This document shows positions 1 through 36,613 of a DNA stretch of 36,613 nucleotides, one piece after another. The position numbers were made by a program, and so were the translations under genes. The notes beneath the pieces were generated by a model. It worked only from the letters and a program-made list of their open reading frames with translations. It was not told the origin of the DNA and did not search any database. Position 1 is the stretch's first letter; every line of letters starts with the position of its first letter. Origin of the DNA: a virus (Duplodnaviria; Caudoviricetes); IMG/VR virus record IMGVR_UViG_3300036819_000335, positions 1 to 36,613 of that record, one strand, 5' to 3'.

Positions 1-1584
1 GTGCTCAAAGGCCTGCCGGCGGTCGATTACTCCGCACGCGACATCATCTACCGGCCGCGCAATGTGCGGGCGCACCGCGTCTACGGCTATTCGCCGGTGC
101 AGCAGGTGCTGATGACCGTCAACATCGCGCTACGCCGCCAGCTCTGGCAATTGGACTATTACTCTGAAGGCTCGATCCCCGACGCACTGATCGGGGTGCC
201 GGCCGGCTGGACGCCCGACCAGATCAAGCAATTCCAGGATTATTGGGACACCGAGTTCTCAGGCGACCTGGCGCGACGCCGCCGCGCCAAGTTCGTGCCG
301 GGCGAGACCGCGGCCCACGTGGTGCAGACCAAGGAGCCCGAGCACAAGGACGACTTCGACGAATGGCTCGCCCGTATCATCTGCTACGCATTCTCGGTGC
401 CGCCGCAATGGGCGACCAAGGTGATGAACCGCGCCACCGCCGATAACCAATCGGCGCAGGCGGAAGACGAGGGTCTCGATCCGACCAAGGAGTGGGTGAA
501 GGACCTCATCGACGAAATCATCACCGAAGAGTTCGCCTCGCCCGATCTCGAACTGGTCTGGCTCGGCGAAGACGACAACGATGCCGGCAAGGCCGAAGCG
601 GCGCTGGAATCGCGCCTCAAGATCGGCGCGGTGACGCTCAATGAGCTGCGCGACGCGCTTGGCCTCGACCCATACACCAACGCCGCCGCCGACCGCCCCA
701 TGGTGCTCACCGCTACAGGCTATGTGCCGATCGAGGCGAATGCCGGAGCCGATGCGGGCGCTAAGGCGAGCCCATCGGCGAACAGCACTGGGCCGCACGC
801 CGCGAAATCCGGGTATTGGCAGACGGCATGCACAGTCCTCACCAAGGACTACGACCCCGATCAGCCCCGCGTGCCGGCGGGCAATGCCGGAGGCGGGCAG
901 TGGACGAGCGATGGTTCTGTTGGATTAGAAACGTCTACTGGCAAAAGAGACTCCGACCGGAGTGAACCGCCCACCGCGCACTCCAATGGTTCACAAATAC
1001 TTTCTGATGCGACACCGGATAATACGTGGATTCCGAGCGCGCAATACGCAGGCGGTATCGAGGAAGGCGAGGGTGAAAGTCGAATCCGTGGAGAACCGGC
1101 CGAAGGAACACCTGCGCAAGAAGCAAGACTCACAGTTGCTGAGGCTCGGTGGCGGGACGCAGTCTCTCAGGTGCAAACCCTCGACCCAAACTGGAAGCCC
1201 ACTCCAGGGCTCTATGAAACCATTGAGGGGCAGATCACCGACCTCGAAGCGCAGACGCGAGAGGCAGAGAACCGTTTCTCCGAGCTCCAGCGCAACGGTG
1301 CCTGCCCGGGGCCGTTTGCAGCCGACTCTATACCAGCCCGCGGCCCGGGCCGTGATTTCACAGACGAAGAACGTGATGAAATCAATCACATTGGCGTCGA
1401 GGCCGGCTGCCACACGTGCGGAACGAGAAACCCAGGTACATCGTCGGGTAACTTCGTGCTCGACCATCAGCCGCCGAATGCATTGAATCTTTCTGGTGGC
1501 GCACAAAGGTTGTATCCTCAGTGTCTGACTTGCAGTTTGCGGCAAGGTGGGTACATACGCCAATACTTTAAGGGCGATCGATGA
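1..1584 (+). CDS. Phage portal protein (probably 5'-truncated by the window) with C-terminal polymorphic toxin extension (HNH-like nuclease)
   Basis: aa 1-247 carry HK97-type portal motifs (IIYRPRN..YGYSPV, YYSEGSIP, ICYAFSVPP, TLNELRDALGLDP). These are followed by a linker with KDYDPDQPRVPAGNAGGGQW, a helical segment, and CHTC..DHQPP..YPQCLTCS (Zn-binding His-Me finger-like). Confidence 0.85.
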   Translation: MLKGLPAVDYSARDIIYRPRNVRAHRVYGYSPVQQVLMTVNIALRRQLWQLDYYSEGSIPDALIGVPAGWTPDQIKQFQDYWDTEFSGDLARRRRAKFVPGETAAHVVQTKEPEHKDDFDEWLARIICYAFSVPPQWATKVMNRATADNQSAQAEDEGLDPTKEWVKDLIDEIITEEFASPDLELVWLGEDDNDAGKAEAALESRLKIGAVTLNELRDALGLDPYTNAAADRPMVLTATGYVPIEANAGADAGAKASPSANSTGPHAAKSGYWQTACTVLTKDYDPDQPRVPAGNAGGGQWTSDGSVGLETSTGKRDSDRSEPPTAHSNGSQILSDATPDNTWIPSAQYAGGIEEGEGESRIRGEPAEGTPAQEARLTVAEARWRDAVSQVQTLDPNWKPTPGLYETIEGQITDLEAQTREAENRFSELQRNGACPGPFAADSIPARGPGRDFTDEERDEINHIGVEAGCHTCGTRNPGTSSGNFVLDHQPPNALNLSGGAQRLYPQCLTCSLRQGGYIRQYFKGDR

Positions 1585-1958
1585 TGGCACAGACAATTAA
1601 AACTGCTCCGCCGAACTCTCTTATATTTGTCACTGACGCTCAGGGTGGCTCCGTGCCTGATCCGAATAAAATAGCGCGGGAAGCAGGCATCACGGCGACC
1701 AGCTCTTGTGTAGTTGTGTGTTGCCTGGCGGAAATGGACGGTAAGACGGAGATCACGATGGGGCCAACCGGCGAGGTGAATCCGGGCCAGGAACCGGACT
1801 TCGATGGTAAGTTGGCAACGCCTACTGGCACCGTTGTAATCTCAACGACTGAGCGAGAAACATTACTCGAAGCAAACGTGCGGACTTTGCAGACTCAGAT
1901 ACGCATTTGGACTAATCGCGCGAGGGAACCCGACAGAGTGATCGTCGGGATTGGATAA
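1581..1958 (+). CDS. Putative immunity protein for the portal-fused toxin
   Basis: 125 aa, ATGA overlap with the toxin stop. Position is typical of immunity genes; family not recognised. Confidence 0.65.
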   Translation: MMAQTIKTAPPNSLIFVTDAQGGSVPDPNKIAREAGITATSSCVVVCCLAEMDGKTEITMGPTGEVNPGQEPDFDGKLATPTGTVVISTTERETLLEANVRTLQTQIRIWTNRAREPDRVIVGIG

Positions 1959-1973
1959 GTTTGCGCGAGCGAG

Positions 1974-2073
1974 ACATCGCGCTGCGCCGCCAGCTCTGGC
2001 AATTGGACTACTAGCGCCTCACCCGATCTGGAATTCGTCTGGCCATCGGAACACGACAACGACCTCGGCAAGG
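1974..2073 (+). pseudogene. Remnant of a second, divergent portal gene with an internal deletion
   Basis: 1974-2013 matches 122-161 (38/40 nt); 2015-2073 matches 534-592 (46/59 nt by hand count). Confidence 0.85.
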
Positions 2074-2131
2074 AAGAGGCGGCGGCGCGCTGGTGGCGCG
2101 CGTACAACTCGGCGCGCACGGGGCGCTATCG

Positions 2132-3493
2132 TCATGCATCTGGCCGGCGGGGCAGGCGACTGACCGCAGCGATGAAAGGCTGTGAAAGGCCTGCGATCGC
2201 ACACATCATGGTCTGCATCATGGGAGCGACTGTCGTGGGGTAACTACCGCCATTTATCTTGGCTGCCATGTAAAGGAAGGAACCCTTCGTTTTTTTGTCC
2301 GCCTGCAGGACGTTGGCGTCACGGCTTAGCGACAGGTAGCCGCCCTTCGCGCTGTTATCGATTGAGACACCGGCGGCGAGCGTGAGGGGTTCGCTAAACG
2401 CGCTGGTCCAATCCGCGTCTGTCGAAATAGTCGCAATGGCTTCGATTTGCGGATCGCCTGACAGACCCGATACGCCAGCCGTCCACTTTTGCGCCAGAGC
2501 GGCAAGAACCGGATTCCCGCCGGCCGCCCTGCTCAGTATGTAATTGATGAGCAGCTTGTAATCCGAGCGCCAAGTCGTCTGGATGACCCCACGCCCTCGA
2601 AACTTATAGAAATCGGCCGCCATCACGAACCCATTGACGGTCGGGTCGACTAAAGTCGAGGGGTAAGACGCCGGCCACGCTTGGCCAGACCATGCCGGGT
2701 CGATACCGCCCGGATTATTCAGTACTGCTACCGAGCCGGCCAGGCCCCCGTGTTGCTTCAAAAAATAGGGGTCCGCGAAGAGCTGATGCGCGATTTTGTT
2801 CGGTGATGTGTTGTAGGACTGTTTCAGGCCGGCAATCTTATCGAAGGCATATGCCAGCCCCGGGTGAGGCCGATTCTGACCGTTCATCTCCTCCGGGGCG
2901 GCGGTAAGATCTCCGGTCGTCTCCTGTATGTTGATGCTCATCAGTGCGCAAAATTCGATCGCCGAAATTTGCGGGCGGCTGAATGTGATCGGGATTTGAT
3001 CCCAAAACTGGGTAAAGTGCTGATTTATGGTAGCGGTGTTTTGCGCCCGTCCGCGATGTCGGAAGGCGCCGGTCGCGGCAAGGACTGAATTATACCAGGC
3101 GAAGAAGCCGCCTTGTGGCGCGAACACTGAAACGACATCGGCAGAATTGCGCAGGACAATGTCGGCACACATGTCCACGACCTGTTGGCTGAACGGAGGA
3201 ATAATCGCGGCGAGCAAAGCCGGCGCGGCGGCAGGAGCGGGGGCCGCGGTGGCGCCGCTAGTGTCCAAAGGGCCGAAAGCGCCGGCCCAAGCATAGCTGC
3301 TGCCGGACGTCCGGTACCACTGCGGATTGCCCTGCACATTGTCGCCGACCGCGATGGCTTCGACCGGAATCGACATTTGCGCGCTGAGCTTCCGCAACAC
3401 CGGGGCTTGCACGCTCGGCGCTCCCTGGCGCAGGTTGACTTTCACATTGGCTGTCGCTTGTCCCGAAATCGGAATTTCGGCAGTCTGTGCCAT
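2132..3493 (-). CDS. Putative peptidoglycan hydrolase: SH3b-like N-terminus plus GH19/lysozyme-like domain
   Basis: VNLRQGAPS..WYR N-terminal module; QETTG, YKFRGRGVIQTTWRSDY and KINGG motifs. Start moved to ATG 3493 (AGGA upstream; 3502 is an alternative). Confidence 0.7.
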   Translation of the reverse strand: MAQTAEIPISGQATANVKVNLRQGAPSVQAPVLRKLSAQMSIPVEAIAVGDNVQGNPQWYRTSGSSYAWAGAFGPLDTSGATAAPAPAAAPALLAAIIPPFSQQVVDMCADIVLRNSADVVSVFAPQGGFFAWYNSVLAATGAFRHRGRAQNTATINQHFTQFWDQIPITFSRPQISAIEFCALMSINIQETTGDLTAAPEEMNGQNRPHPGLAYAFDKIAGLKQSYNTSPNKIAHQLFADPYFLKQHGGLAGSVAVLNNPGGIDPAWSGQAWPASYPSTLVDPTVNGFVMAADFYKFRGRGVIQTTWRSDYKLLINYILSRAAGGNPVLAALAQKWTAGVSGLSGDPQIEAIATISTDADWTSAFSEPLTLAAGVSIDNSAKGGYLSLSRDANVLQADKKTKGSFLYMAAKINGGSYPTTVAPMMQTMMCAIAGLSQPFIAAVSRLPRRPDA

Positions 3494-3498
3494 CACGA

Positions 3499-3870
3499 TC
3501 ATCCTACCGCGTCGTCCGATGATGAGGTGGCGGGCACGGAAGGTGAAGCAACCGCAGCCGTGCCACCCGAAAGTTGTCCGACGAATCCTTCGATGAAGTC
3601 CGTGCCGGCATAGCCGGCCGTAGCGATTCCGAGCAACTGCTCTTGCGAGATTTGTCCGGTGTCGGGGAGGACCGTTATCGCCGCAAACGCTCCGGCGACG
3701 CCGCCGATGGCGAACGAGATCAGAAGCCATACGCCATTACAAAGACAGTTCGTCGGCTGTGTTTGATGGTCGTTCAGCTTCTTGAGCTCGACAATGGTTC
3801 TTGCGCCCTGGCCGAGAGCGCCGAGGATGATGCCTACCACGAGGAGTCCAAGCCAGCCGCCGGGGATCAT
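3499..3870 (-). CDS. Small 3-TM membrane protein, paralogous to the N-terminus of 5563..6195
   Basis: Hydrophobic helices; motifs GALGQGAR..LKK and GYAGTDFIEGF; GAGGA upstream of ATG 3870. Confidence 0.75.
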   Translation of the reverse strand: MIPGGWLGLLVVGIILGALGQGARTIVELKKLNDHQTQPTNCLCNGVWLLISFAIGGVAGAFAAITVLPDTGQISQEQLLGIATAGYAGTDFIEGFVGQLSGGTAAVASPSVPATSSSDDAVG

Positions 3871-3949
3871 GTCACGTCCTCGCTTGTTGGGTCGCACCTA
3901 TTAAGCAACGTGGAAACTGCCGAAGCCGCCAGCCGCCTCGTGATCTGCC

Positions 3950-4330
3950 TTATCGTGCGGCCACGACTATCGGATCGATCGAGGGCGGAGACGCAGCCGC
4001 CACCAGAAAGTTCTGCACCAGCTGGTCTTCGCCGGCGCGCAGCGGATAGACATAAGTGCCGTCTCCAAACAGGACATGAGAGACGATAATGGTTGCGACC
4101 GGCGCGTTGCCGCCGGCGCCTCTCTGGACCGACAGGTCGATCTCGGCAATTAGGTACGAGCAGGTCAAACTCAGCGCCGCCGGATTGGCCTGAACGCCGG
4201 TGACGTCGTAATCCCCATTATTTCCGGGCGCGACGATGGTGATATGGGCCGTATCGGCGCCGGTCTTGGTCAGCGTGATCGTCCGCGTCACGCCGTTAGC
4301 GTCGGAGTGGATGGTGATGGTGGGGTTCAT
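3950..4330 (-). CDS. Hypothetical beta-rich protein
   Basis: 126 aa ORF co-oriented within the antisense operon; alternating Thr/Ile/Val strands. Confidence 0.65.
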   Translation of the reverse strand: MNPTITIHSDANGVTRTITLTKTGADTAHITIVAPGNNGDYDVTGVQANPAALSLTCSYLIAEIDLSVQRGAGGNAPVATIIVSHVLFGDGTYVYPLRAGEDQLVQNFLVAAASPPSIDPIVVAAR

Positions 4331-4402
4331 AGTCTCGTTCTCAGGGCCTTTGCCGGCATATCTCTAATTTCCGAAACGCCGACGAGTGTTACATCATTGC
4401 CG

Positions 4403-5566
4403 TCAAATCTTTGCGCTGAGGCTCGCGAGATATTGGTTCGTCATCGTGCCGCTGTTTTCATCGAGTCCGCGGTTATAGCTAAACTTCAGACCAACATTAC
4501 CCGCCTCATCGAGCCGATAGTTGATGGCGCTCGTCCACCAATAGGAACCATGGCCGGTATACCCCTCGTACCAAGGGTGAAAAGTTGTGTTTAACGCAAG
4601 CCGATCCCAAAAATCATCCCCACCTCCTGCAAAAGGCTTCACCAGAAGGGTAAGATCGGGACCTATACGTAACGATTGCGACTTGCCTGAAAACTGCAGG
4701 GGATTTTTAGGATCGGTGGTGCTGGCGTACTGAAATTTTATGTCGGGATCGAATTGATAGCGTATAGCGCCGCCGAATAAAGGATAAACGGTCCAAAATC
4801 CAAGGCTGGAAAGAGCGGGGATGTATTCCCCCATCACCGCGACCGCAGTTGTATCCTTGATAGCGTCCCAAACGGCGTTTGGGGTGACTCGAAAGAACTG
4901 GTAATCGTTACCTGCGGTATAGCCGAGCTCGCCGGAGAAGCCGGCGGTGCGTGTGTCGGCGTTGTTCTTCTTGGCCAGTTGCGCGTTGGAATTGTAGCTG
5001 GAGTTATCCTCGACATAGAAGGCGAAACTTTTATCGAACCACCGGCCCGGACTATTTCCAGGGGCGAATAGATCGATGTCGGAATAGACTATCGCCGCCA
5101 ATCCTTTCGTCGCCCAGATCCGGTCTTTTGCGACATAATCGTCTGAGTAGGAGATGGACGATCCTGTCGCTTGTTTGACAGCAGTCGGGCAGCCCAGCGT
5201 TCCTGCATCGGACCACGAGTCTCGCAGCAAGAAATGAAATCCCGAGCAGTTTGAGACGTTGTTGGAGGGAGGCGATGCAGGAGGCGTCGGAGGCAATGGG
5301 GCTGGCGGGTCGGCCGTACTAACCTTGACTTTCGGGTTTTTGCTGGGGGCCGATATCTTGCCGGATGGCGCCGGCGTTGCAGTCGCCGCCTGAAACGCAG
5401 GATATTTTGCCTTCAGAGCGGCGAGAGTCGATGCATCGGGACGAAGGATTGCCAATAAGCTCCGCGCATCGTCTTCGCTGATTTCGGCGGACGCTTGGAT
5501 GGTTGACCCGGCAGTCAGGACGCCGGCAAGGGCCAGCAGCAGGCTGGAGCGGATCGGCCGGTTCAT
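4403..5566 (-). CDS. Secreted protein, possibly an outer-membrane beta-barrel
   Basis: Signal peptide (MNRPIRSSLLLALAG..ASA), Pro-rich linker, aromatic amphipathic strands, C-terminal strand QYLASLSAKI. Confidence 0.6.
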   Translation of the reverse strand: MNRPIRSSLLLALAGVLTAGSTIQASAEISEDDARSLLAILRPDASTLAALKAKYPAFQAATATPAPSGKISAPSKNPKVKVSTADPPAPLPPTPPASPPSNNVSNCSGFHFLLRDSWSDAGTLGCPTAVKQATGSSISYSDDYVAKDRIWATKGLAAIVYSDIDLFAPGNSPGRWFDKSFAFYVEDNSSYNSNAQLAKKNNADTRTAGFSGELGYTAGNDYQFFRVTPNAVWDAIKDTTAVAVMGEYIPALSSLGFWTVYPLFGGAIRYQFDPDIKFQYASTTDPKNPLQFSGKSQSLRIGPDLTLLVKPFAGGGDDFWDRLALNTTFHPWYEGYTGHGSYWWTSAINYRLDEAGNVGLKFSYNRGLDENSGTMTNQYLASLSAKI

Positions 5567-6195
5567 GACTGGCTCCCGATTGGTTTGGCAGCCTCAACAC
5601 TTTTGACCACATCCCCGACCGTGCTCCAGCTCGCCACTCCAGAATTGTCGATCTCATAGCCTTTCGGTTTAAGTGCGTCGTTTATCTGACCGGCCAAAAT
5701 GTACAGATTTTCTATGTTCACGTAGTTGAGGTCGCTCAGAGATGTCTTGTCGGTGACTCCGGCGCCGCCCTGCAAGACAGCCATGACGACCTTTTCTGCA
5801 TCATTGTATGGGTAAGTTGCGGGTTGTTGCACCGCGGCGGCCGCCGGTTTCTTTGCTGTCGAAGCGGTCGTTCCCGGCGCCAGATATTGCGCAATGAAGC
5901 CTTCGAGGAAATCGGTGCCCGCATAGGCGCTGACGGCCCACGCCAGCATTATCTGCCAGCTTGGATCGGCCGTGGCTGAGCCGCCGCTCTTGAGATAGAC
6001 CAGCACCGATGCCAGCCCGACGACGATGCCGATCAGAAAGCTGACGAGCAGACGTCCGGCTTCGAACAGGTCGTTGGGATTAAGGCCCTGAGCCTGGGCG
6101 GTATCCGCCATTCCCTTGAGTCCGATGATCGCCCGCGCGCCTTGGCCGAGTATGCCCATGAGCGCGCCGATGATGAGAATTTCCAGCAACATCAC
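5563..6195 (-). CDS. 3-TM membrane protein with C-terminal acyl-carrier-protein-like domain
   Basis: GILGQGAR..LK and AYAGTDFLEGF in the N-terminal part. C-terminal VTDKTSLSDL..EID..WSTVGDVVKSVE resembles ACP. GGAGG RBS. Confidence 0.65.
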   Translation of the reverse strand: MMLLEILIIGALMGILGQGARAIIGLKGMADTAQAQGLNPNDLFEAGRLLVSFLIGIVVGLASVLVYLKSGGSATADPSWQIMLAWAVSAYAGTDFLEGFIAQYLAPGTTASTAKKPAAAAVQQPATYPYNDAEKVVMAVLQGGAGVTDKTSLSDLNYVNIENLYILAGQINDALKPKGYEIDNSGVASWSTVGDVVKSVEAAKPIGSQS

Positions 6196-6666
6196 ATCCT
6201 CCCTCAGTAGCCGAATGATTGTGGCGGACCGCGGTGCGTCCGCGCTGGTTCGTTGGTAATTGTACTCGCGTTGAATGATGCGGCAGCGCGCTCAGCGCCG
6301 CTTGCGCGCGGGGTTTCACCGATCGTGCGCTCTATGTCCGATGCTTTTTGACTGAGATGAGGCAACGCAGAAAATGCGTTTGCCGGCGTTGCGAGACCCG
6401 CATCCGCTGGACGCGAATGGTCTGCAAGCAACGCGGATAGAAACACGAATGCGGACGTTGACGTCCGACCGCCCCACACCACACGCCCCCACCAATCGCT
6501 ACGCGTTTATTCCCAGCGATCAGAGAAACATACTCTCGGTTGATCAATCTCAGGTGTCAATAGGGAAAGCTGACAACCGACAACATTGCCGGCGAGCGTC
6601 AGCCAATTGGCGACGAGCTCGGCCGTCGCCCGCATACCGCAATACCACCAAACAAGGAGCTTACGC

Positions 6667-7710
6667 ATGGACGACATGACTCTCTTCGTGCCGATCACCA
6701 AGATCGACGCGGCGCAGCGCCTGGTTTACGGCGTCGTCACCGCCGAGACGCCGGACGTGTCCGGCGAGGTTTGCGACTATGTCTCGACCAAGCCGCATTA
6801 TCAGAAATGGTCGCAGAATTTCGTGAGCGCCTCGGGCGGCAAGAGTTTCGGCAACCTGCGCGCCATGCACGGCGCTGTCGCCGCCGGCAAGCTCGTCGAC
6901 ATTGCGTTTAACGACGCGCATAAGCGCATCGAGATTTGCGGCAAAGTGGTCGACGACGACGAATGGAAGAAAGTCGAGGAGGGCGTCTATACCGGCTTCT
7001 CGCAAGGCGGCCGCTATCTCAAGCGCTGGCCCGATCCGGATGCGCCGACGCTGACGCGCTACACGGCCGAACCGCTGGAAGTGTCGCTGGTCGATTATCC
7101 CTGCTTGCCGGACGCGACTTTCGCGGTGATCAAGCGCGACGGCTCGACCGAGCTGCGTAAATTTAAATCGGACGTGTCGGAGGATGACGCAGCGACGGCC
7201 GCGGTAGCGCTGACCAAGATCGGCGCGCGCCACTCCAGGGCCGACAAGGAGCGCATCAAGCATGCCCACGATGCGCTGGTCGGGCTCGATCCGGATTGCT
7301 GCCCCGGCGCCGCGGTGCCTGGCGCCAATGTGCACGCCAGGCCGAAATTCTCGCCGCAGGCGGGCGAGGGAGCAGCCGATACTGGCGGCGATGAAATGGA
7401 CGACAATACCGAGAAGCTCGCCAAGATTCTGGATCGCGCGGTGGATCGAAACCTGGCCAAGGCCTTGCGCGGAATGAACGCGCGGCTCGACGACTTCGCC
7501 GCGCGGATGAAAAAGATCGAGAATCAGCCATTGCCGCTCGGTACAACGTCCGTGCGTGTCGCCGAAAAAAGCGATGATGCAATCTTTCCCAAGCCCGAGG
7601 CGTTGCTCGATCAGCCCGGCGCGCTCGAGGCCTTGGCCGAAGCCGCCATCCGCAAGGCGCAAACGCAGCCGCTGCGCGCCATTCCGGGCTTCAAGCCGCG
7701 GCAGGGATGA
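6667..7710 (+). CDS. Prohead (maturation) protease with C-terminal scaffold-like region
   Basis: ITKIDAAQRLVYG, LRAMHG, YTGFSQGG and EVSLVD motifs of HK97/herpes-fold phage proteases; AAGGAG RBS before ATG 6667; lies between portal and capsid. Confidence 0.85.
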   Translation: MDDMTLFVPITKIDAAQRLVYGVVTAETPDVSGEVCDYVSTKPHYQKWSQNFVSASGGKSFGNLRAMHGAVAAGKLVDIAFNDAHKRIEICGKVVDDDEWKKVEEGVYTGFSQGGRYLKRWPDPDAPTLTRYTAEPLEVSLVDYPCLPDATFAVIKRDGSTELRKFKSDVSEDDAATAAVALTKIGARHSRADKERIKHAHDALVGLDPDCCPGAAVPGANVHARPKFSPQAGEGAADTGGDEMDDNTEKLAKILDRAVDRNLAKALRGMNARLDDFAARMKKIENQPLPLGTTSVRVAEKSDDAIFPKPEALLDQPGALEALAEAAIRKAQTQPLRAIPGFKPRQG

Positions 7711-7778
7711 GCGGCCATTTTCGTCGTTCCCAGCACTTTACGCCAAAGCGAAAAGGCCAAGGCGAAACTTTCCTACCG

Positions 7779-7920: not shown

Positions 7921-9507
7921 ATGTATCAGCCTAATCTGCAGCACATGCTTGCAAAGTCGATGACCAAGTCGGCTCGGCCTCACACTTTGCAGGACTACAA
8001 CGCCGCGCTGGCGAACGCTGGCGGCTTTCTCCAGGAGATCGAGAAGGCGCACGCCAATCCGCTGCCCGGCGATCCGCTCGCCAAATCGACCTTTTCGGAA
8101 TCGACGTCGCCGACCTCGGGCCTGACCTATTACGATCTCGAGACCGGTGCCAAATTCGTCTATCCGCTGCTCACCCCGTTGCGCAACGAGATCCCGCGCG
8201 TCTCCGGCAAAGGCGGCATCCAGGCCAATTGGCGTGCGGTCACCGGCATCAACACCACTGGGCTCCGCATCGGCGTCTCCGGCGGCAACCGCGGCGGCGT
8301 GCAGGCGGTGACGACGCAGGATTATTCGGCGGCCTACAAGGGCATCGGCGTCGAAACCTCGGTCGACTTCGAGGCGCAATATGCCGGCATGGGCTTCGAC
8401 GACGTGAAAGCCATCGGGGCCAAGATCGGGCTTGAAGCCTGCATGCTCGGCGAGGAGCTTTTGATCCTCGGCGGCAATACCTCGGTGCCGCTTGGTGTGA
8501 CGCCGACGCCGTCGCTGGCGCCGTCGATCTCGGGCGGCACGCTGACCGCCGCTGCCTCGCCGTATAGCGTCATCTGCGTAGCGCTGTCGCTCGACGGCGT
8601 CGTCAACGGCAGCGTCACCGGCGGCATCCAGGGCGCCATTACGCGCAGCAATGCCGATGGCTCGTCCGACACATTCGGCGGCGGCGCCGCGGAGAAATCG
8701 GCCAACGCCACCGCGTCGATCGCATCGGGCACCACGGGCTCGATCGCGGCCACGGTGGCGCCGGTCGGCGGCGCGGTCGGCTACGCTTGGTTCTGGGGCG
8801 CCGCCGGCTCCGAACTGCTCGGCGCCATCACCACCATCAATTCGGTGATCATCGCCGCCAACGCCACCGGCACGCAGACCGCGGCGTCGCTCGGCGGCAG
8901 CGACAATTCGACCAATGCGCTGGTGTTCGACGGCTTGCTCTATCAGGCGTTCAAGTCCGGCTCGAACGCGTACGTGCAATATCTTGCCACCGGCACCGCC
9001 GGCACCGGCTCGACGCTGACCGGCGACGGCGCCGGCGGCATCGTCGAGGTCGATGCGGCGCTGAAGAACCGCTGGGACAATTACCGGCTGTCGCCCGACA
9101 CCATGTGGGTCTCCTCGCAGGTCGCCAATAATCTGTCGGCGAAGATTCTTGCCGGCGGCACCAACGCGGCGCAGCGTTTCGTGTTCGATGCCGACCAGGG
9201 CGCGCTCGGCGGCGGCGTCATGGTGCGCACTTATCTCAACAAGTTCTCCATGGCCGGGCCCAAGACGCTCGACATCCGCGTGCATCCCAATATGCCGGCC
9301 GGCACCATCCTGATGACGTCGCGGACGCTGCCTTATCCGCTGGCCAATATCGGCAATGTCGCGCAGATCCGCACCCGGCAGGACTACTACCAGATCGAGT
9401 GGCCTCCGCGCGCCCGGCGCTACGAGACCGGCGTCTATGCCGACGAAGTGCTGCAGCATTATTTCCCTCCGTCCATGGCGGTGATCTCGAATATCGCCGC
9501 GGGTTAA
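7921..9507 (+). CDS. Major capsid protein with Gly/Ala/Thr-rich insertion domain
   Basis: GLTYYDLE..AKFVYPLLTPLRNEIPRVSG, EELLILGG, FDGL, IRVHPNMPAG; follows the protease gene. Confidence 0.85.
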   Translation: MYQPNLQHMLAKSMTKSARPHTLQDYNAALANAGGFLQEIEKAHANPLPGDPLAKSTFSESTSPTSGLTYYDLETGAKFVYPLLTPLRNEIPRVSGKGGIQANWRAVTGINTTGLRIGVSGGNRGGVQAVTTQDYSAAYKGIGVETSVDFEAQYAGMGFDDVKAIGAKIGLEACMLGEELLILGGNTSVPLGVTPTPSLAPSISGGTLTAAASPYSVICVALSLDGVVNGSVTGGIQGAITRSNADGSSDTFGGGAAEKSANATASIASGTTGSIAATVAPVGGAVGYAWFWGAAGSELLGAITTINSVIIAANATGTQTAASLGGSDNSTNALVFDGLLYQAFKSGSNAYVQYLATGTAGTGSTLTGDGAGGIVEVDAALKNRWDNYRLSPDTMWVSSQVANNLSAKILAGGTNAAQRFVFDADQGALGGGVMVRTYLNKFSMAGPKTLDIRVHPNMPAGTILMTSRTLPYPLANIGNVAQIRTRQDYYQIEWPPRARRYETGVYADEVLQHYFPPSMAVISNIAAG

Positions 9508-9637
9508 CGCACCGCCATGCGGCGGGCCGCCGCCCGCCGCCCGTTGCCTTTTGCTTCGCATTTCCTTCGACTGTCATCACCGGGCCGGCGCACAACGCCG
9601 CGACCCGGTGATCCATTTCAAAGCCTTGGACGCCGGA
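9402..9637 (+). repeat. Capsid 3' end plus downstream intergenic DNA, copy 1 of an imperfect direct repeat
   Basis: Aligns by eye with about 10626-10857 (e.g. tctatgccgacgaagt..gcagcattatttcc..gtgatctcgaa..atcgccgcggg.taacgca). Confidence 0.9.
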
Positions 9638-9823
9638 GGCATTGACGTAGAGGTTTCCGATGATGATTCTGTTGCCCGGGTTGGTTATCAATTCGGTGAG
9701 ATAAAGCCCCGGACTCCTTCAGGCGAAGCCAGATTCAACAGGCAACTTCAAGAGTGGGGTGTGGGACCCGTTCAAGCCATTACCTACGATGCCGCCGGGA
9801 ATGTCTATTATGGATTTCGCTGA
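9638..9823 (+). pseudogene. C-terminal remnant of a PD-(D/E)xK nuclease toxin (paralogue of 10900..11679)
   Basis: GIDV..RVGYQFGEIKPRTPSGE..YDAAGNVYYGF is nearly identical to the end of 10900..11679; RBS, start and the first ~200 codons are missing. Confidence 0.85.
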
Positions 9824-10593
9824 TGGACGCGCTTGATCTCTTACGATCTCATAAATATGCCGAGGCTATTGCCGAGTGTAAGCGACGGCTTTCGACGAAC
9901 CCCAACGATTTTGGGGCCATGGGCACAATGGCATCGGCATTGCGCGCTCTCGAAAAATACGCACAAGCCATCCCATTATTTGAGCGCATTGGCGCGCACG
10001 AAAAGGAACGAAAAATAACGCCGGGTCATCCGGGCCGGCAGATGGATACTGCCTGCCTCTATTGGTTCTTAGGCAATCGGAATGAAGCTATTGCACTGAT
10101 GCGCGGTATGGTCGACGGCATCCTCGACGGATCGATCCAATACGGCGATCTGGCCGGCGGCTTGAAGCAAGGCCTGCTGCTCTACTATATGGCTGTCACC
10201 GAGCGCCAGCCGGAGCAGGCGGCTCGCGCATTGGACTACATGCGAAGCCGAATAAATCAACTGGAGCGGTCGTTGCCGGGACTACCAATAGATTATTGGC
10301 CGGTTCCGGTGGCGCGTTACTATCTCGGCGGTCTCGCCTTTGACGAGGTGTTGCTTTTCGCCACGGGGCAACGGGACTTACCGGGGGCCCTTGCGGCGGC
10401 GCAAGTCAAGCTGATGAGCCGCCGAAAGCTCTGCGTGGCGCTCTTTCACGACGGCGCCAAGAGCCGCGCCCAGGGCGCGGAGAGCCAGTGCCTCGCGCGC
10501 ATGCGTGAGTGTTACGCGCTCGAAGACCCGCTGATCGAGCCGGAATGGTATCTCGCCCGGCACGAAGTAGAGCAAGCAGCTAACAAGGCTTGA
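9823..10593 (+). CDS. TPR-like putative immunity protein, copy 1
   Basis: 256 aa from ATG 9823 (TGATG overlap); helical TPR-like repeats; close paralogue of 11679..12449. Confidence 0.8.
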   Translation: MDALDLLRSHKYAEAIAECKRRLSTNPNDFGAMGTMASALRALEKYAQAIPLFERIGAHEKERKITPGHPGRQMDTACLYWFLGNRNEAIALMRGMVDGILDGSIQYGDLAGGLKQGLLLYYMAVTERQPEQAARALDYMRSRINQLERSLPGLPIDYWPVPVARYYLGGLAFDEVLLFATGQRDLPGALAAAQVKLMSRRKLCVALFHDGAKSRAQGAESQCLARMRECYALEDPLIEPEWYLARHEVEQAANKA

Positions 10594-10625: not shown

Positions 10626-10857
10626 GCCTCCGTACGCGGCGCTACCGGCATCTATGCCGACGAAGTCTTGCAGCATTATTTCCCGCCGGCCATGGCCGTG
10701 ATCTCGAACATCGCCGCGGGCTAACGCATCGTCCTGCGGCGGGCCGCCGCCCGCCGTCCGTATTCTTTTGGCTTGGCATTTCCTTCGAACGTCATCACCG
10801 GGCCGGTGCCACAGCGCTGCGACCCAGTGATTTGCTTTCAGGACCTTAGACGGCGGA
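10626..10857 (+). repeat. Capsid 3' end plus intergenic DNA, copy 2 (divergent capsid remnant)
   Basis: Encodes TGIYADEVLQHYFPPAMAVISNIAAG*, versus TGVYADEVLQHYFPPSMAVISNIAAG* in the capsid. Confidence 0.9.
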
Positions 10858-12537: not shown

Positions 12538-12840
12538 ATGGCCCGACGCAGCATCGCCGCCAGGCGCGGCGCGCGCACAGAAAAGCTAGATGTTCGGCTC
12601 AGCCGCGCTGCAAAGGAGACACTGCAGGCGGCCGCCGCGGCCGTGCGCAAGTCCGTAAGCGAATTCGTGGTTGATTCGGCTCTTGCCGAGGCGGAGGAGC
12701 GGCTTGCCGATCGGCGTCTGTTTACCCTTGATCGTAAGAGCTGGGAAGCCTTTGTCGCGGCGCTTGATGCACCGCCGCGCCGTCATCCGCGTCTTGAGCG
12801 TTTGTTTGGCGAGCCCTCCGTGTTCGATCGGAAAAGCTGA
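12538..12840 (+). CDS. DUF1778 (TacA/AtaR-like RHH) antitoxin
   Basis: RTEKLDVRLS..LQAAA..SVSEFV..W.AF.AALDAPP..PRL; directly upstream of a GNAT gene; tgtcatgaca palindrome at 12483-12492. Confidence 0.9.
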   Translation: MARRSIAARRGARTEKLDVRLSRAAKETLQAAAAAVRKSVSEFVVDSALAEAEERLADRRLFTLDRKSWEAFVAALDAPPRRHPRLERLFGEPSVFDRKS

Positions 12841-12842
12841 TC

Positions 12843-21800: not shown

Positions 21801-21897
21801 CGATCGGTCGCCGAAGTCATGGCGCGGCCGCCAAATGCAGCCTCAATTTGGTTTGTGAAAATCCCTCATCGCGTGGCGGAGAGGGACGAAAGACATC

Positions 21898-26294: not shown

Positions 26295-26337
26295 CGCAGG
26301 GTCCGGGCGGTCTGCCGAATCAAGACAGGGGGGTGCC

Positions 26338-27213
26338 ATGAAACCTGCGTCCTCTGCGCTCATCTCCTATCTGAATGCCGCACGCGCGGCGCCGGACGTG
26401 CAATTGCTGTTTGCCGACACGTTCGCTTTCACGCTGCGCTCGGGGCTCATCCTCACCTATACCAATGTCGACGTGACGTTTACCTATAGCGGCGTCAGCT
26501 ATCTCGCCCATTCGATCCTCATCGACGGTCTCAAATACAAGGCGTCCGTCGGTCTCGAAGTCGATCAGCAGCAGATTACCGTTTCGGCGCTCGCCACCGA
26601 CACGATCACCGGCGGCGCGCCGTTCCTGCAAGCGCTGCGCGACGGCGCCTTCGACGGCTGCGAGATCGAGCGCGATCGCGTGTTTTTCTCCGACCGCATT
26701 GGCGGCACGGCGATCGGGGCGGTGACCTTGTTCAAGGGACGGCTCGGTACGGTCGATCAGATCGGCCGCACCAGCGCCAAGCTCACGGTGAATTCCGACC
26801 TGGTGCTGCTCGACATCGATATGCCACGCAATATCTATCAGCCGACCTGTCTGCACACGCTTTACGATTCCGGCTGCACACTGATCAAGAATGCATTCGG
26901 CACAACCGGTACGGTGGGTACGGGCTCGACTGCCGGCGTGATCGTCTGGTCCGGCGCCGATACCAATTTCCAGCAGGGTTCAATCACCTTCACCTCCGGC
27001 GTCAATGCCGGCGTAACCGCCAATGTCAATGCTGTGGCTGCCGGCGTGTCGCTTACGCTCGGCTATCCGCTGCAAAGCGTCCCGGCGCCGGGCGATAGCT
27101 TCACCGTTTATTACGGCTGTGATCACACCCCCGGCACCTGCCAAGCGAAGTTCAATAATCTGTCGAATTTTCGCGGCTTTCCTTATGTCCCGCCGCCGCA
27201 AATGGCGGTGTGA
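26338..27213 (+). CDS. Baseplate hub protein (DUF2163 / BR0599, GpL-like Cys motif)
   Basis: YQPTCLHTLYDSGC..GCDHTPGTC..KFNNLSNFRGFPYVP. Confidence 0.9.
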   Translation: MKPASSALISYLNAARAAPDVQLLFADTFAFTLRSGLILTYTNVDVTFTYSGVSYLAHSILIDGLKYKASVGLEVDQQQITVSALATDTITGGAPFLQALRDGAFDGCEIERDRVFFSDRIGGTAIGAVTLFKGRLGTVDQIGRTSAKLTVNSDLVLLDIDMPRNIYQPTCLHTLYDSGCTLIKNAFGTTGTVGTGSTAGVIVWSGADTNFQQGSITFTSGVNAGVTANVNAVAAGVSLTLGYPLQSVPAPGDSFTVYYGCDHTPGTCQAKFNNLSNFRGFPYVPPPQMAV

Positions 27214-27264
27214 GTTTGCGTCAGGCGCCGGATTTTGGGCGCGTCAGGCATTCGAGGAAGTTCC

Positions 27265-27753
27265 ATGATGGACGTCGAGGTCGCGCAACGCGCCGCCGTC
27301 GTTGCCGAGGCGCGCTCATGGATCGGCACGCCGTATCACAACTGCGCGGACATCAAAAGCGTCGGCGTCGATTGCGGCATGCTGCTGGTCCGCGTCTTTG
27401 TCGATTACGGTTTATGCGCGCCGTTCGATCCGCGACCATATCCGGTCGATTGGCATTTGCATCGCAGCGAGGAGCGCTATCTCGGCTTTGTCTTCGATCG
27501 CGGACAAGAGGTGCGTCCGGCGCAGCCCGGCGATATCATGGTGCTGCGCTACGGCCGCTGCTACTCGCATGGCGGCATTATCGCTGCGGTAAGTCCGCTC
27601 ACTCTGGTGCATGCCTATTATCCGGCGCGCCGGGTCGTCGAAGAGGAGGTCGCGCGCAACGCCGTGCTTGCCGACGCGGCCCGGCAGCCGCGCTTCTTCA
27701 GCCTGTGGGCTAGGGATCGCGTGAGCTATCAGCAAGCCAAGAGTGCGTCATGA
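27265..27753 (+). CDS. Tail-associated NlpC/P60 peptidase
   Basis: ARSWIGTPY..GVDCGML..PGD..HGGI..VHA. Confidence 0.9.
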   Translation: MMDVEVAQRAAVVAEARSWIGTPYHNCADIKSVGVDCGMLLVRVFVDYGLCAPFDPRPYPVDWHLHRSEERYLGFVFDRGQEVRPAQPGDIMVLRYGRCYSHGGIIAAVSPLTLVHAYYPARRVVEEEVARNAVLADAARQPRFFSLWARDRVSYQQAKSAS

Positions 27754-30133
27754 GCATCTTCCGCGTCGGTGCCAAACAGCAGGCCGTGCCGCCGGACTAT
27801 ACCGGCCTGCAGATTCAGACGGCCGTCAATGCTTTGCCGATTCCCATCGTATGGGGCGAGTCCAAGCTCGCGCCGAACGTGGTCTGGTACAATAACTTTC
27901 AATCGATTCCGCAGCAGAACGGCGGCGGCGGCGGCAAGGGCGGACTATTCTCGACCGCAACAACAACCGGCTACGACTACACCGCGTCGATCATCATGGC
28001 GCTGTGCGAAGGCCCGGTCGTCGCCATCAATCAGATTTGGCGCGGACAATCGGTCTACACGCTTGCTGGCCTCGGCCTGTCGCTGTTTACCGGCACGACG
28101 CCGCAAACGGCATGGAATTATCTTGCCACGACCTATCCGGCGCAGGCCCTTGCCTATCAAGGAACGGCTTATCTGTGTGCGGCCAATTACGATCTCAGCG
28201 ACTCGGCGACGCTGGACAATCATAATTTCGAAGTGCAGGGCTTCTTCTACGGCAGCGGCGCCAACGGCGTCGACGCCGATCCGGCGAAGGCCGTTGGCGA
28301 CTTCCTCACCAACGCTCAATATGGCGTCGGCTTTCCAGCGGGCAGCATCGACGCCACCACGCTTTACGGCTCCGGCGGCGACGCGTCGTATCAGACTTAT
28401 TGCGCCGCCATCGGGCTCGCGCTATCGCCGGCGCTCAACGATCAGGAGCAAGCCTCCAGCATTCTCGCCCGTTGGCTGAACCTCACCAATACCGCGGCGG
28501 TGTGGTCAGGGGGGCTCCTGAAACTCATTCCCTATGGCGACGCCGCGACGTCGGTGGGGGCTGTGCAAACGACGACGATCGCCGTGACCTTGCCGGCAGC
28601 CGGGACGTTTATCACGCCGACGCCGCAGGTCTACGTGACACCGCCGTCGCGCTTCGTCGCCGATCTCGGCGTAAAATATTCCGTCAGCGGCACCGCCTTC
28701 AGCTTCATCGGCTCCGCTACGCCGTCGGCCGCCGGGACCTATGCCATTTCGCCGAGCGGCACCTACGTGTTCGCCGCCGCCGACGAGAATGCCGGCGTCA
28801 CCATCGGTTATCAGTACACCACCGCGTCAAGTTTCGCGCCCGATGTGACGCCGCTCTACAATCTCACCGACGACGATTTCAAGGCGGAGAGCAACGAAGA
28901 CCCGCTGCAGGTCACGCGCTCGGATCCCTATCAAGCTTATAATGTCTGGCGTCTGGAGATCGCGGAGCGGGTCAACGCCTATAATCTGACGACGGTGGAA
29001 TCGCGCGACCAGAACGCCATCGAGCTCTACGGCATGCGCATCGCCCCGACCGTCACGGCGCATGAGATTTGCGATCCCAATGTGGCGCTGATCGCCGGCC
29101 AGTTGATGCTGCAGCGTTCGGTCTATATCCGCAACACCTACAAGTTCCGGCTGTCCTGGGAATACTGCCTGCTCGATCCGATGGACCTGGTGACCGTGAG
29201 CGATACCGTGCTCGGCCTGTCCAATGCGCCGATCCGCATCGTCGAGATTGAGGAAGACGAGAACGGCTTCTTGCAGGTGACGGCCGAGGAGTTTCCGCTC
29301 GCGTGGCGACGGCGACGCTCTATGCGACGCAGCCGGTGTCGAACAGCCCGATCAACCGCAATCTGGTGCCCGACCCGGTCAATGCGCCGATCATGTTCGA
29401 ACCGCCCGCGGCGCTGGTCGGGGCGACCGCGCAAGTTTGGATCGCGGCGTCGGGCGGATCGGGCGGCATCGCTGATCCGATTTGGGGCGGCGCCCTGGTC
29501 TGGCTGTCGCTAGACGGCTCCTCGTATTTTCAGATCGGCACCATCGTCTCGCCGGCGCGCCAAGGCGTGCTGACCGCAACATTGCCGGCATTTACCGGCA
29601 CCAATCCCGATGCCGTCGACGATCTGGCGGTGAACTTGAGCGAGAGCGGCGGTGTCTTGGCGAGCGCCAGCGCGCTCGACGCCCAGCTCACCAACACGCT
29701 GTCGATCGTCGACGACGAACTTTTGTCCTACGAAACCGCGACGTTGACCTCGGCCAGCAATTATTCGCTCGCCACGATCTATCGCGGCCTCTACGGCACG
29801 GCGGCGTCGGCGCATGCGAGCGGCGCGCCATTCGCGCGCCTCGACAATGCGATGCTCGAATACGACCTGCCGCCGCAATATGTCGGGCAGACGCTCTACA
29901 TCAAGCTGCAGAGCTTCAACGTGTTCGGGGGCGGCGTGCAGGATTTGTCGAGCTGCGCCGTCTACACCTATACGCCGAGCGGGGTGGCCATCGATCATCC
30001 GGTGGCGCGCGCGCTTCTGGTGTCGACCTCGTTCGATTTCGGCGCGGTGACGGCGTCGGACACGACGACCGACGACTTCGGCGCGCCGCCAAGTCTTACC
30101 GTCGAGCTCGACGTCAATCTCGGCACGGCATGA
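27750..30133 (+). pseudogene. Central tail / megatron-like protein (phage tail-3), split by a 1-nt frameshift at about 29301
   Basis: PIPIVWG, MALCEGP, LDPMDLV, TAEEFPL, then continues in another frame as VATATLY..RGLYGT..FARLD..IKLQSFN. One extra G (ctcGgcgtg) restores a single ORF. Could be a sequencing error. Confidence 0.75.
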
Positions 30134-30145
30134 GGATTTTGACTG

Positions 30146-30703
30146 ATGACCACTGCGGTTCAGGTTCAATACCGGCGCGGCGCCGCGAGCCAGGTGGCGT
30201 CGTTCACCGGCGCGCAAGGCGAGCTCGTCGTCGACACCACCAATAATCGCGTTGTCGTGCAGGACGGCGCCACCGCCGGCGGCTTTGCCGCCGCCAAATT
30301 GACCGACCTCGGCACGGTCACCGGCCTGCACGGCTCGACCATCCAGACCGGCGTGCTCGAAGACCTGATAACCTGTTCCGGCGCATCCTCGGTGTCGACG
30401 GTGACAATCCCCAATCGCGCCATCGTTTGCGCGGTGTCGACCTATGTCGTGACGGCGATCACCGGCGCGACGTCGTTCAATGTCGATGCCACGACAAGCG
30501 CGAGCGGCGGCACCGGCACCACGGCGGGCCAATTCGGCTCAAGCCTCGGCATCGCCCCCGGCGCGAGCAATTGCGGCGTCATCGGCCCGACCGCCTGGTA
30601 CGCCACGTCCACAGTCAAGCTCACGGCCCAAGGCGGCAGCTTCACCGGCGGCACCGTGCGGGTTGCGATCCAGTACATTTTATGTGGCGTGCCGACGGGT
30701 TGA
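30146..30703 (+). CDS. Small tail-fibre-related protein (Mtd-N / hyaluronidase-N-like N-terminus)
   Basis: VQYRRG..FTGAQGELVVDTTNNRVVVQDG. Confidence 0.7.
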   Translation: MTTAVQVQYRRGAASQVASFTGAQGELVVDTTNNRVVVQDGATAGGFAAAKLTDLGTVTGLHGSTIQTGVLEDLITCSGASSVSTVTIPNRAIVCAVSTYVVTAITGATSFNVDATTSASGGTGTTAGQFGSSLGIAPGASNCGVIGPTAWYATSTVKLTAQGGSFTGGTVRVAIQYILCGVPTG

Positions 30704-34406: not shown

Positions 34407-35798
34407 GTGCTGAACGAACAGCTGCGTGAGCAATGGCGTGTGCGCGAGCGCGCCGCGCCGATTTACCCGGTTATGACTTTCGCGTCTGACGGGCTCGTGC
34501 TGGGTGCCGGCACGGTACTCCTTCAGGCGGAGGGGCCACGTCGGCTGCAAAGCCTATGCGGCCAGGAAATGCGGGTGCTCGCCTTGTTGGCCGCGGCTTA
34601 CGGGAGGGCCGTGGCGCTAGCCGTCTTGGGCAACATCGAACGAGCCGCCAAATCCTGGGAGGACGGCGATCAATGCCCCGCCCATATCCACTTGGCGCAC
34701 AGCCGTCTGGATGCGCCAAGTGAGGTTAGAGCCGCAGCGTGCCGGTTATTCGTAGCCGAATGCGCGATGAAGGCCGGCATAAGCCCACGCGCCATCTTCC
34801 GGGCGCTCAGGATCGGCCGTTCATACGTAGGCGCCGTCGAGAAGGCTTACAACCCTGCGGAGCCGCGCGTTCCCGCCGGCAGCGGCAGAGCAAGCGGCGA
34901 GTGGGCATCCGACGGCGCGGAAGCCGGCGGAGCCGACGCCACGGGAGATGAAACAAGTGGCGACGGCGCACAAGGCTCATCTCTGCTCGGCAGAATGTCG
35001 TCCCCGGCGGCCAGCTTTCTTGGCGACCTCGACGCGGCCGAGGTGGCCGAGCTTGGCACCTATGCGTCGCGCATTCTCGGCCCGGTTGGCGCTGCTGTCG
35101 CGGCATTTGGATTACTGTTCATACCGTCTCCCAACGATGTCCGTGTCGAAGGCGAGGTGCCGGAAATACCTGGACTGCGCTACTCCTGGAACCGCGACGA
35201 GACCCAGCTTAATCTGACATACAACGATCCCGACGGTGATCAACGCACCTTCTCTGCGCAATTGGATGGCGATGTATTTCATGACGCGCAGGGCCGAGTT
35301 ATCGGCCGCGTCCTTTCAGGCAGCACCGTTGCCATAGATGCTGCTGCTGTATCCTCCGATCTGGTCGACGAAGACGAGCCCAGACTTTGCCCGGATATCG
35401 CGAAGGACAAACGCACGAATGACCTTGGCCTGGATTACGAGAACTATATAAAGAGTATCGTCAATCCAGAAAATCCGACGCCGCCCTATATGGGGTATGA
35501 GCTTTCGAATGTTACCAGAACGGTGTCGTTCGACGACTGTGAACATTCGACCGGTACGATGGTCGAGATTAAGGACGGATACGCGGGATTCTTGGAAAGT
35601 GATTGGGGCAAAGGGTTTCTCGCGGAGATATTTTGGGAGCAGGCTATGGACCAGATACGGGCCGCCGGAACGCGGCCCGTTCGCTGGTACTTTTCGCAAA
35701 GCGAAGTAGCGGATTATGCTAAAAAGATATTCAGCCAAGTCGACGCTCTGAAAAATATCGAAATCACATTTAAACCCCGGCCCGGGAGAACGAAATGA
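34407..35798 (+). CDS. Polymorphic toxin with Tox-REase-5-like C-terminal nuclease
   Basis: VEKAYNPAEPRVPAGSGRASGEW motif; hydrophobic segment (ILGPVGAAVAAFGLLFIPS); DYENYI..VSFDDC..MVEIKDGY..QIRAA..VRWYFS. Confidence 0.8.
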   Translation: MLNEQLREQWRVRERAAPIYPVMTFASDGLVLGAGTVLLQAEGPRRLQSLCGQEMRVLALLAAAYGRAVALAVLGNIERAAKSWEDGDQCPAHIHLAHSRLDAPSEVRAAACRLFVAECAMKAGISPRAIFRALRIGRSYVGAVEKAYNPAEPRVPAGSGRASGEWASDGAEAGGADATGDETSGDGAQGSSLLGRMSSPAASFLGDLDAAEVAELGTYASRILGPVGAAVAAFGLLFIPSPNDVRVEGEVPEIPGLRYSWNRDETQLNLTYNDPDGDQRTFSAQLDGDVFHDAQGRVIGRVLSGSTVAIDAAAVSSDLVDEDEPRLCPDIAKDKRTNDLGLDYENYIKSIVNPENPTPPYMGYELSNVTRTVSFDDCEHSTGTMVEIKDGYAGFLESDWGKGFLAEIFWEQAMDQIRAAGTRPVRWYFSQSEVADYAKKIFSQVDALKNIEITFKPRPGRTK

Positions 35799-36613
35799 AC
35801 ACGTGGCCCGTTAAATATTCAGAATTCACATATTCAGTCCGTCTGCCGTTTGCCATTCGTCCGGTGACTCCCGAGTGGTTGGGTTCCAAATTTCTGGAGA
35901 CACTCGATGCCTTGACGCAGGTCGACGCGAATAATTTTCCAGATTGGGAGGTCGGCGATCTGCCTGCCATAAAGGGATATCCGCTGACGGCCGCTCGGCC
36001 GCGCATTGCCGAGATCATCAGCCATAATGTCACGCGCGACGACCTCGGTCTTCCGCTGCCGGAGTCCGGTTACACTGCCGTGGCCCAAACGACGATCGCC
36101 GCAAGGTCGCGTCGGATGAGTTTTTGCGCCCGCACGTGGATGGGGCAGGTGCGGCTAGATGCGAGCAATGCAATGGTGGCGCCGGACCCGGCGATCGTGA
36201 CCTATCCGTTGTTTCGCGCCGCTTTGCTGACCATTAATGCGATTTGGCAGGAGCCTTGGGCCTGCGTGCAAGCGTTCCGATCAAACGCGGTGAAAGTGCC
36301 CCTGGTCGGTTCAGATCTTGAGCAGGGTTATACTCTGAAATCTGCCCCGATGATCCCTGCCGACCCGACGTTCCCGGTATCCGTTTTCCATGTCCCTTGG
36401 CTCGCCTATCTTTCTCCGCCGCTCGCCTCCAACGTCAAGCTGCCGCCCGAAATCCAGACCGAGCATACCGTCGACGGGGGCCTTCTGATGACCGCGACGG
36501 AGGAGAGGCTCGACCCCGATATTCCCGAGCACGCGTGGCGCGCGCGTATTTTGGCCGAGACGATGATCGCTCAGACCGGACTCTTTTCGCGGCGAAAGGC
36601 TAACGGGTGGTAA
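35795..36613 (+). CDS. Imm52-like immunity protein
   Basis: ATGA-coupled to the toxin; WQEPWA..PWLAYL..LPP..GGLLMTATEE..P.H pattern. Imm52 is the usual partner of Tox-REase-5. Confidence 0.7.
   Translation: MNTWPVKYSEFTYSVRLPFAIRPVTPEWLGSKFLETLDALTQVDANNFPDWEVGDLPAIKGYPLTAARPRIAEIISHNVTRDDLGLPLPESGYTAVAQTTIAARSRRMSFCARTWMGQVRLDASNAMVAPDPAIVTYPLFRAALLTINAIWQEPWACVQAFRSNAVKVPLVGSDLEQGYTLKSAPMIPADPTFPVSVFHVPWLAYLSPPLASNVKLPPEIQTEHTVDGGLLMTATEERLDPDIPEHAWRARILAETMIAQTGLFSRRKANGW

Follow-up and report, generated by a model that had tools for sequence, protein, structure and literature searches.

Polymorphic toxins of temperate phages that are built around MuF have been described (PMC5576092; Bxa in PMC11699363; PMC3482391). 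They consist of a variable C-terminal toxin and a downstream immunity gene, lie in the head module and are proposed to be delivered by the phage head. Effector domains fused to MuF or to the portal are also reported in PMC5512222 and PMC9503650. A comparable arrangement is found in the stretch of DNA considered here (hereafter the window), the whole 36,613 nucleotides of IMG/VR record IMGVR_UViG_3300036819_000335, which starts inside a portal gene, leaves the left end of its element outside, and encodes the head, the tail and the cargo of a phage-derived particle. In this element a portal protein or a short leader is joined, through a lysine and a conserved peptide of some 20 residues (the tag), to a toxin tip that is followed by a coupled partner gene. 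The locus is, on sequence grounds, a polymorphic toxin system of the phage-head type with predicted toxins. MuF toxins and portal-fused effectors were known; the shared Lys-tag and the seat in domesticated particles are new. The explanation that we favour, with modest confidence, is a domesticated particle whose toxins, carried behind the lysine and tag, the head protease would release for ejection into non-immune cells.

Several distinctions separate this locus from its closest counterparts. None of its cassettes matches PF04233 or PF06152 (the MuF3 and MuF4 profiles were not applied), and the anchors are the portal or leaders of 40-145 residues. Unlike the MuF toxins, the element carries several cassettes with a shared tag on portal or short-leader anchors, and its relatives belong to Alphaproteobacteria, without integrase and replication genes, whereas MuF toxins are found mainly in Firmicutes. 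ART-PolyVal, GNAT and Nudix, the hallmark domains of the polyvalent proteins, also occur on the top matches to our tag profile; the accessible text on those proteins proposes processing by built-in metallopeptidases and names no repeated Lys-tag. The window proteins differ from them in bearing one tip each together with an immunity partner, several domains per chain being seen only in tag-bearing relatives. Rhs and contact-dependent inhibition (CDI) arrays share the same toxin tips and likewise consist of partial-repeat arrays followed by new tip/partner pairs, but here the tag with its portal or leader occupies the place of the Rhs core or HINT domain.

The tag starts with Lys and continues roughly as [YF]-[DNS]-P-[DN]-Q-P-R-x-P-x-G...G-G-Q-W. 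The first-pass annotation had recognized four related copies in the window, and all four are present where it placed them, at 844-903, 11026-11097 (11026-11106 in Table 1), 15459-15518 and 34842-34904, on the plus strand as are the structural genes. In order, they score 58.9, 65.0, 41.5 and 35.1 bits, whereas shuffled versions of the window (20) and control loci (20) do not exceed 11.8 bits; profiles A and B were built with the window's own tags included, profile C without them. The suggested kinship holds for types A and B, which align by profile (expect value (E) 2e-4), and is not shown by profile for type C versus A (E 0.06), though intermediate forms were found next to type A in single proteins. 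Neither solved structures nor cultured phages returned a match to the tag, no Pfam or NCBIfam model covers it among the tag-bearing proteins scanned, and the ESM Atlas yielded unnamed clusters only. No publication naming the tag, or describing toxin cassettes in gene transfer agent (GTA) clusters, was found in a literature search that covered few subscription papers and no supplements; the supplementary alignments of PMC5512222, which lay outside that search, could contain the tag.

Three of the five cassettes that had been proposed for the window are intact: the portal/HNH-like fusion, 10900-12449 and 34407-36613. In all five toxin/partner pairs the stop of the first gene overlaps the start of the second, and, as the first reading had it, the pairs are co-oriented with the structural genes. 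The segment 9638-10593 is an untagged, leaderless and truncated duplicate of part of 11524-12429 (83% identical), lying between two copies of the capsid 3' end; contigs from three of four runs join 9618 directly to 10861, so that alleles without this duplicate exist. The deaminase cassette is broken: relative to an intact homolog of 353 residues (L051) it has a frameshift in the leader and has lost about 125 residues, so that tag C and the deaminase remnant stand in different frames, and contigs from two runs bridge the break. The first-pass annotation saw no known delivery domain. This is right as regards MuF, yet it missed that the open reading frame at 1-1584 is a portal protein (PF04860; phrog_2662, E 2e-48) fused to tag and tip, and with the portal fused to the first toxin a structural delivery domain is present in the window.

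The domain labels given earlier stand to differing degrees. Pfam finds TPR (tetratricopeptide repeat) and upholds the DddA-like deaminase (E 6e-7) and Imm1 (5e-7), whereas Tox-REase-5 (E 0.002) and Imm52 (E 1e-4) remain below the cut-off; a homolog of the Imm52-like gene in genome G003 exceeds it, and a cassette related to this pair occupies the same element end in G001 and G003. The HNH-like tip has no Pfam match; it shares 67-74% identity with the ends of Rhs proteins. Of its 262 homologs 120 were listed, and among these 66 carry the tag, 27 an Rhs/HINT label, none both and 27 neither. Its structural model has a predicted local distance difference test (pLDDT) of 81 and its top five fold matches are all His-Me fingers, the best of them weak (Z 4.4, root-mean-square deviation 4.5, 75 residues aligned); Foldseek gave nothing under E 0.001 for this tip, T4 EndoVII being the best at E 1.7. 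The partner family of 1581-1958 stands behind seven of the eight tips in the HNH-like cluster, and the eighth tip runs off its contig. The PD-(D/E)xK label of the 10900-11679 tip is backed by motifs, with D47, E64 and K66 invariant, and not by Pfam (no match) or by fold (no match, from a model too poor at pLDDT 46). In 25 of its 26 homologs (21 by profile, four by eye) this tip is joined to tag A, B or C behind differing leaders.

Exchange of tips is best seen among relatives of the portal. A portal scan of viral contigs gave 141 matches, the best 80 of which supplied 54 loci, the same element having been assembled more than once in some cases. In 47 of the 54 the tag was recognised behind the portal by pattern, and in three more by eye; beyond the tag we counted, likewise by eye, about nine types of tip with matching partner genes. 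Together with the window these loci hold 147 tag-bearing frames, all on the portal strand, and 131 complete tips in 19 clusters. A downstream gene was called for 111 of these tips, and in 110 it belongs to the partner family typical of the tip's cluster (barstar partners chained into another cluster in this procedure). Arrays of portal fragment, tag, tip and partner follow the portal in many loci. Known pairs occur among them: in 36 sampled proteins Pfam detected, above cut-off, barnase with barstar, CdiA RNase A and Ntox37, and a colicin E3-type pair was also found. Tip and partner are exchanged as pairs among relatives, and the portal and capsid-end repeats could serve recombination. A conserved N-terminal trafficking part with interchangeable C-terminal tips, the hallmark of polymorphic toxin systems, is what we find here, as are orphan cassettes with homology for recombination in the form of portal and capsid-end repeats and arrays. 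Of 77 tips taken from bacterial genomes, 17 match Pfam, 11 of them RNase A, and 14 of 65 partners of such tips are DUF2019. This family stands in the partner position in L058, L067, L072, L096, L105, L106, L110, L111 and L119, as does DUF6968 in L047; both are likely immunity families. Tags were also noticed behind prohead-protease sequences, in L176 and in L092 (716-6889), the latter with three protease-fragment repeats bearing different tips.

Head proteases of the HK97 type cut after lysine, and it is likely, judging from residue patterns, that the head protease cuts after the lysine of the tag. With a search pattern that omits it, a lysine directly precedes the tag in 113 of 137 genome matches, compared with 32 and 30 in two upstream windows. 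In the family of the window's element, Leu, Ile or Val stands two positions before the tag lysine in 81 of 99 tags; the same spacing is seen for three of the four lysines in the first 58 residues of the capsid protein, but for only eight of the 69 lysines of mature capsid and tail. We suggest that the precursors enter the prohead, where the XkdF-like protease would cut after [LIV]-x-K, a pattern shared with the capsid propeptide, and would leave the tag at the new N-terminus. The capsid-targeting sequence of T4 is a short leader that the prohead protease removes. In contrast to T4 leaders and HK97 processing, the conserved peptide of the window follows the predicted cut and would remain on the cargo. 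A portal fusion can do without a packaging signal, and in polyproteins the tag recurs ahead of the domains; for these reasons the role of the tag would come after cleavage, when it would hold the piece in the head and route it out with the DNA. Partner genes would protect producers and their kin, and orphan partners would broaden that immunity.

A different account would make the tag itself the packaging signal, one that binds the capsid interior or the scaffold without any cleavage, the lysine being simply a part of it. The leaders are indeed of several unrelated kinds, and in many tagged proteins the tag is preceded by just 5-15 residues, which could not accommodate a separate packaging domain. 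A portal fusion, however, would be incorporated regardless, and short leaders still end in Lys; moreover, an uncut polyprotein would need one signal, yet tags recur before domains. We regard this account as unlikely. As a separate matter, the standalone leader was considered as a mimic of the scaffold end helix or of the capsid propeptide and shows no profile similarity to either; a search of viral contigs for relatives of the tag-C and last-cassette leaders gave two spurious loci and none, respectively.

The tag extends far beyond this element. At E <=0.001 a 34-position tag profile matched 5,429 cluster representatives out of 1.84 billion. Most of the best 150 matches are long proteins, with as many as 11 tags each, and the 85 of the 150 that were scanned carry ART-PolyVal, ADP-ribosyltransferase, GNAT, Nudix, Acb1, Zeta, Fic, topoisomerase IB and MuF domains as well as two further portal families (Mu-type and PF06381), many having no Pfam match; in total the tag is found behind four portal families. 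The independence from MuF that was first proposed is therefore true of the window, whereas the tag at large occurs in thousands of proteins, some with MuF. The long multi-tag proteins are the polyvalent proteins of PMC5512222, and their tags could serve to cut giant polyproteins into single cargo domains. Giant polyproteins with 2-11 tags were recorded as P0001-P0125; two polyproteins compared with cultured phages gave single-domain matches only. A wider and more tentative proposal, which we hold to be somewhat short of an even chance, is that tailed-phage heads use the tag generally as a signal for injection, and that Alphaproteobacteria have taken it over to put polymorphic toxins aboard domesticated particles, namely the aspS-linked element described below as well as Hyphomicrobiales clusters that resemble the Rhodobacter capsulatus gene transfer agent (RcGTA).

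In bacteria, the tag-A DNA pattern has an estimated 810 matching stretches in GTDB genomes, and the 80 listed are nearly all alphaproteobacterial. Among 72 distinct tag loci, 30 have head or tail genes within 10 kb (14 of 39 with full flanks), as opposed to none of 20 control stretches from tag-bearing genomes. The enrichment beside head genes that the first-pass annotation had offered as a check of its proposal is thus borne out, as is the position of the tag before diverse tips with partners. Tags and structural genes are co-oriented in 65 of 65 cases. Most of the 30 loci are RcGTA-like clusters with an HK97 portal, to which the tag is fused in several cases, and with the megatron gene where the flank extends that far. 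RcGTA-like clusters of Hyphomicrobiales in which tagged cassettes lie between head genes or are fused to them are L056, L085, L092, L097, L105, L110, L111, L123 and L127; L111 has up to six tags, and L056 and L123 adjoin a penicillin-binding-protein gene. Records named Afipia birgiae and Phyllobacterium have tagged cassettes in such clusters.

The other 42 of the 72 tag loci are orphans, with no structural gene in the fetched flank by queries that covered two element families only, and a coupled partner is still present at 18 of their 28 long tips. Orphans of this kind, along with two ordinary toxin-antitoxin modules in the window's structural operon, would suit pairs that act inside the carrier cell, by addiction or abortive infection, with the tag as a hitch-hiking recombination handle. 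Against such a role stand the fusions to four portal families, the sharing of tips with Rhs toxins, protein-level conservation over 5,429 clusters and the invariable co-orientation of tags and head genes, and we consider it very improbable. An RcGTA megatron gene lies elsewhere in all five of five genomes with orphan tags; there was no matched control, and we do not count this as support. In L058, L075, L090 and L106, orphan tagged genes share one conserved housekeeping site in related genomes, three of them named Bosea.

The element itself is best known from its relatives. In G001, G002 and G003 all tag-A matches (8, 6 and 8) fall within one element of about 50-70 kb. The gene set of the window lies directly beside aspS in seven alphaproteobacterial genomes, and the same junction occurs in three viral contigs. 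A CI-like repressor, a GcrA-like gene and DUF6362 precede the terminase there and, with a small unknown gene, are all that recurs between aspS and terminase. In L195 (15269-17846) the repressor, of the CI-like S24 type, faces away from the GcrA-like gene and DUF6362, and this regulatory block is a candidate induction switch. No integrase was found at the element ends of G001-G003 in a search that covered G001-G004, although a 212-residue integrase-domain gene lies in the middle of the G003 element, and replication genes were not recognisable in the closest complete relatives. The ratio of nonsynonymous to synonymous substitution rates is 0.12-0.22 for structural genes of the relatives and 0.17 for aspS. 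Frameshifts in the long-read genomes G001, G002, G026 and G028 were disregarded since aspS is split there too. Tags are present in eight of nine close capsid-bearing relatives of G003 and in seven of the other 52. A fixed chromosomal site, the lack of end integrase and replication genes, and purifying selection are thus features of the relatives and not of the window itself; by this evidence the element is likely more akin to a domesticated particle than to a temperate phage, and the earlier picture of a temperate phage with lysogen immunity is not sustained. The nearest cultured heads are those of the Brevundimonas phages Polewnik and Strzyga (62-63%). In the slot of tag and toxin, the Polewnik portal (L201, 7673-9997) has a different C-terminal extension that looks MuF-like by eye.

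The RcGTA (PMC7296036) is a further parallel. Like it, the element is a chromosomal structural cluster without replication genes and with similar tail-tip families; it differs in its portal, protease and capsid and in having no single megatron gene. On TIGR01537, where the cut-off is 112, the partial portal of the window reaches 23.5; it fits phrog_2662, and GTA_TIM and Phage-tail_3 are in separate genes. Toxin cargo is not mentioned in the accessible text of PMC7296036. The element could be a gene transfer agent or helper-dependent prophage whose injected cargo does not kill rivals and instead disarms or briefly stalls the recipient, or favours recipients that acquire the immunity gene too. 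Purifying selection acts on terminase, portal and RcGTA-like tail tip, a CI-like repressor is present and tagged polyprotein domains include enzymes of host takeover and anti-defence (Acb1, ADP-ribosyltransferases). Mostly nuclease-type tips, dedicated partners and arrays of orphan immunity genes, however, have the anatomy of competition between strains, and we think this explanation decidedly unlikely.

Returning to ejected toxins freed by the head protease, a number of observations weigh against this interpretation. The main objections are the orphan tag loci and periplasmic delivery: according to the available text of PMC7296036, RcGTA brings DNA just to the periplasm, and nuclease tips need the cytoplasm. 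The Leu/Ile/Val bias is not clear for lysines of the scaffold (3 of 12) or of the protease core (4 of 14), and polyprotein tags have the lysine at -1 in only 220 of 443 cases. Pfam gave no match for 60 of the 77 bacterial-genome tips. Just two of 18 Mantel tests show significant co-divergence with aspS, so that the element is mosaic, and among 61 relatives of G003 a capsid was found in only 10, of which nine are close. The left end of the element falls outside the window, whose aspS site is deduced from relatives by 88-97% capsid identity and the shared gene set. Two of its five cassettes and its tail hub gene are decayed; the latter has a frameshift near 29300 in the window, as it does in run X1, while X2, X3 and X5 have it in frame. 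Given this frameshift, the window's copy of the element may be defective and those of close strains not.

Why bacteria retain costly gene transfer agent clusters is a long-standing open question, and toxin/immunity arrays in such clusters make a role as weapon or in kin selection testable in cultured species. If the adoption of an injection tag is correct, some gene transfer agents would also be kin-discriminating weapons supplied by scattered orphan genes. The way in which phage heads choose and expel internal proteins is poorly known, and a tag present in thousands of proteins offers a handle on it. With the tag one can delimit domains in phage polyproteins and identify their cargo, and it is a source of many uncharacterised predicted antibacterial toxin/immunity pairs.

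Table 1. Features of the window (positions in nucleotides from its first letter)
Feature	Position	Strand	Evidence or remark
Portal (5' end cut off by window), linker, tag A and HNH-like tip	1-1584	+	PF04860, phrog_2662
Tag type A, starting with conserved Lys	844-903	+	58.9 bits
Predicted nuclease tip, HNH/His-Me-finger-like	1294-1581	+	likeness to Rhs toxin ends; model
Predicted immunity gene, cognate to HNH-like tip	1581-1958	+	overlaps tip stop; shared partner family
Decayed pieces of a second portal copy	1974-2084	+	match 122-161 (95%) and 534-603 (77%)
XkdF-like prohead protease with scaffold tail	6670-7710	+	PF14550; PHROG head maturation protease
Major capsid protein, [LIV]-x-K sites in first 58 residues	7921-9507	+	matches annotated major capsid proteins
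Capsid 3' end and flank	9402-9637	+	repeat at 10626-10857 (82%)
Orphan duplicate: truncated tip remnant without tag, intact TPR partner (9823-10593)	9638-10593	+	
Standalone leader, tag B (11026-11106) and predicted restriction-endonuclease-like tip	10900-11679	+	fold unconfirmed
TPR protein, predicted immunity partner	11679-12449	+	
Neck and tail genes, RcGTA-like tail tip, short tape measure (394 residues)	13748-30703	+	
Broken leader, tag C (15459-15518) and DddA-like deaminase remnant	15128-15697	+	
Imm1 immunity gene, intact	15694-16134	+	PF14430
Standalone helical leader, tag A (34842-34904) and Tox-REase-5-like tip, far element end	34407-35798	+	
Imm52-like immunity gene	35795-36613	+	PF15579, E 1e-4

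Some further features of the window deserve mention. The two ordinary toxin-antitoxin modules inside the structural operon are TacA1-like/GNAT (12538-13349) and Phd/PIN (21118-21800). Between the portal cassette and the protease, three to four minus-strand genes (2132-6482) oppose the operon; one 532-residue product has a faint endolysin match and the others have no match. A promoter scan gave results no better than chance. In a strain of run X2, 1,041 bases are inserted between the NlpC/P60-like gene and the tail hub gene (window 27710-27749). Finally, L001 (8342-10210) and the window (5869-7736) are 99.4% identical over a block, with just 81-91% identity in the portal region, the mark of a recent exchange between elements.

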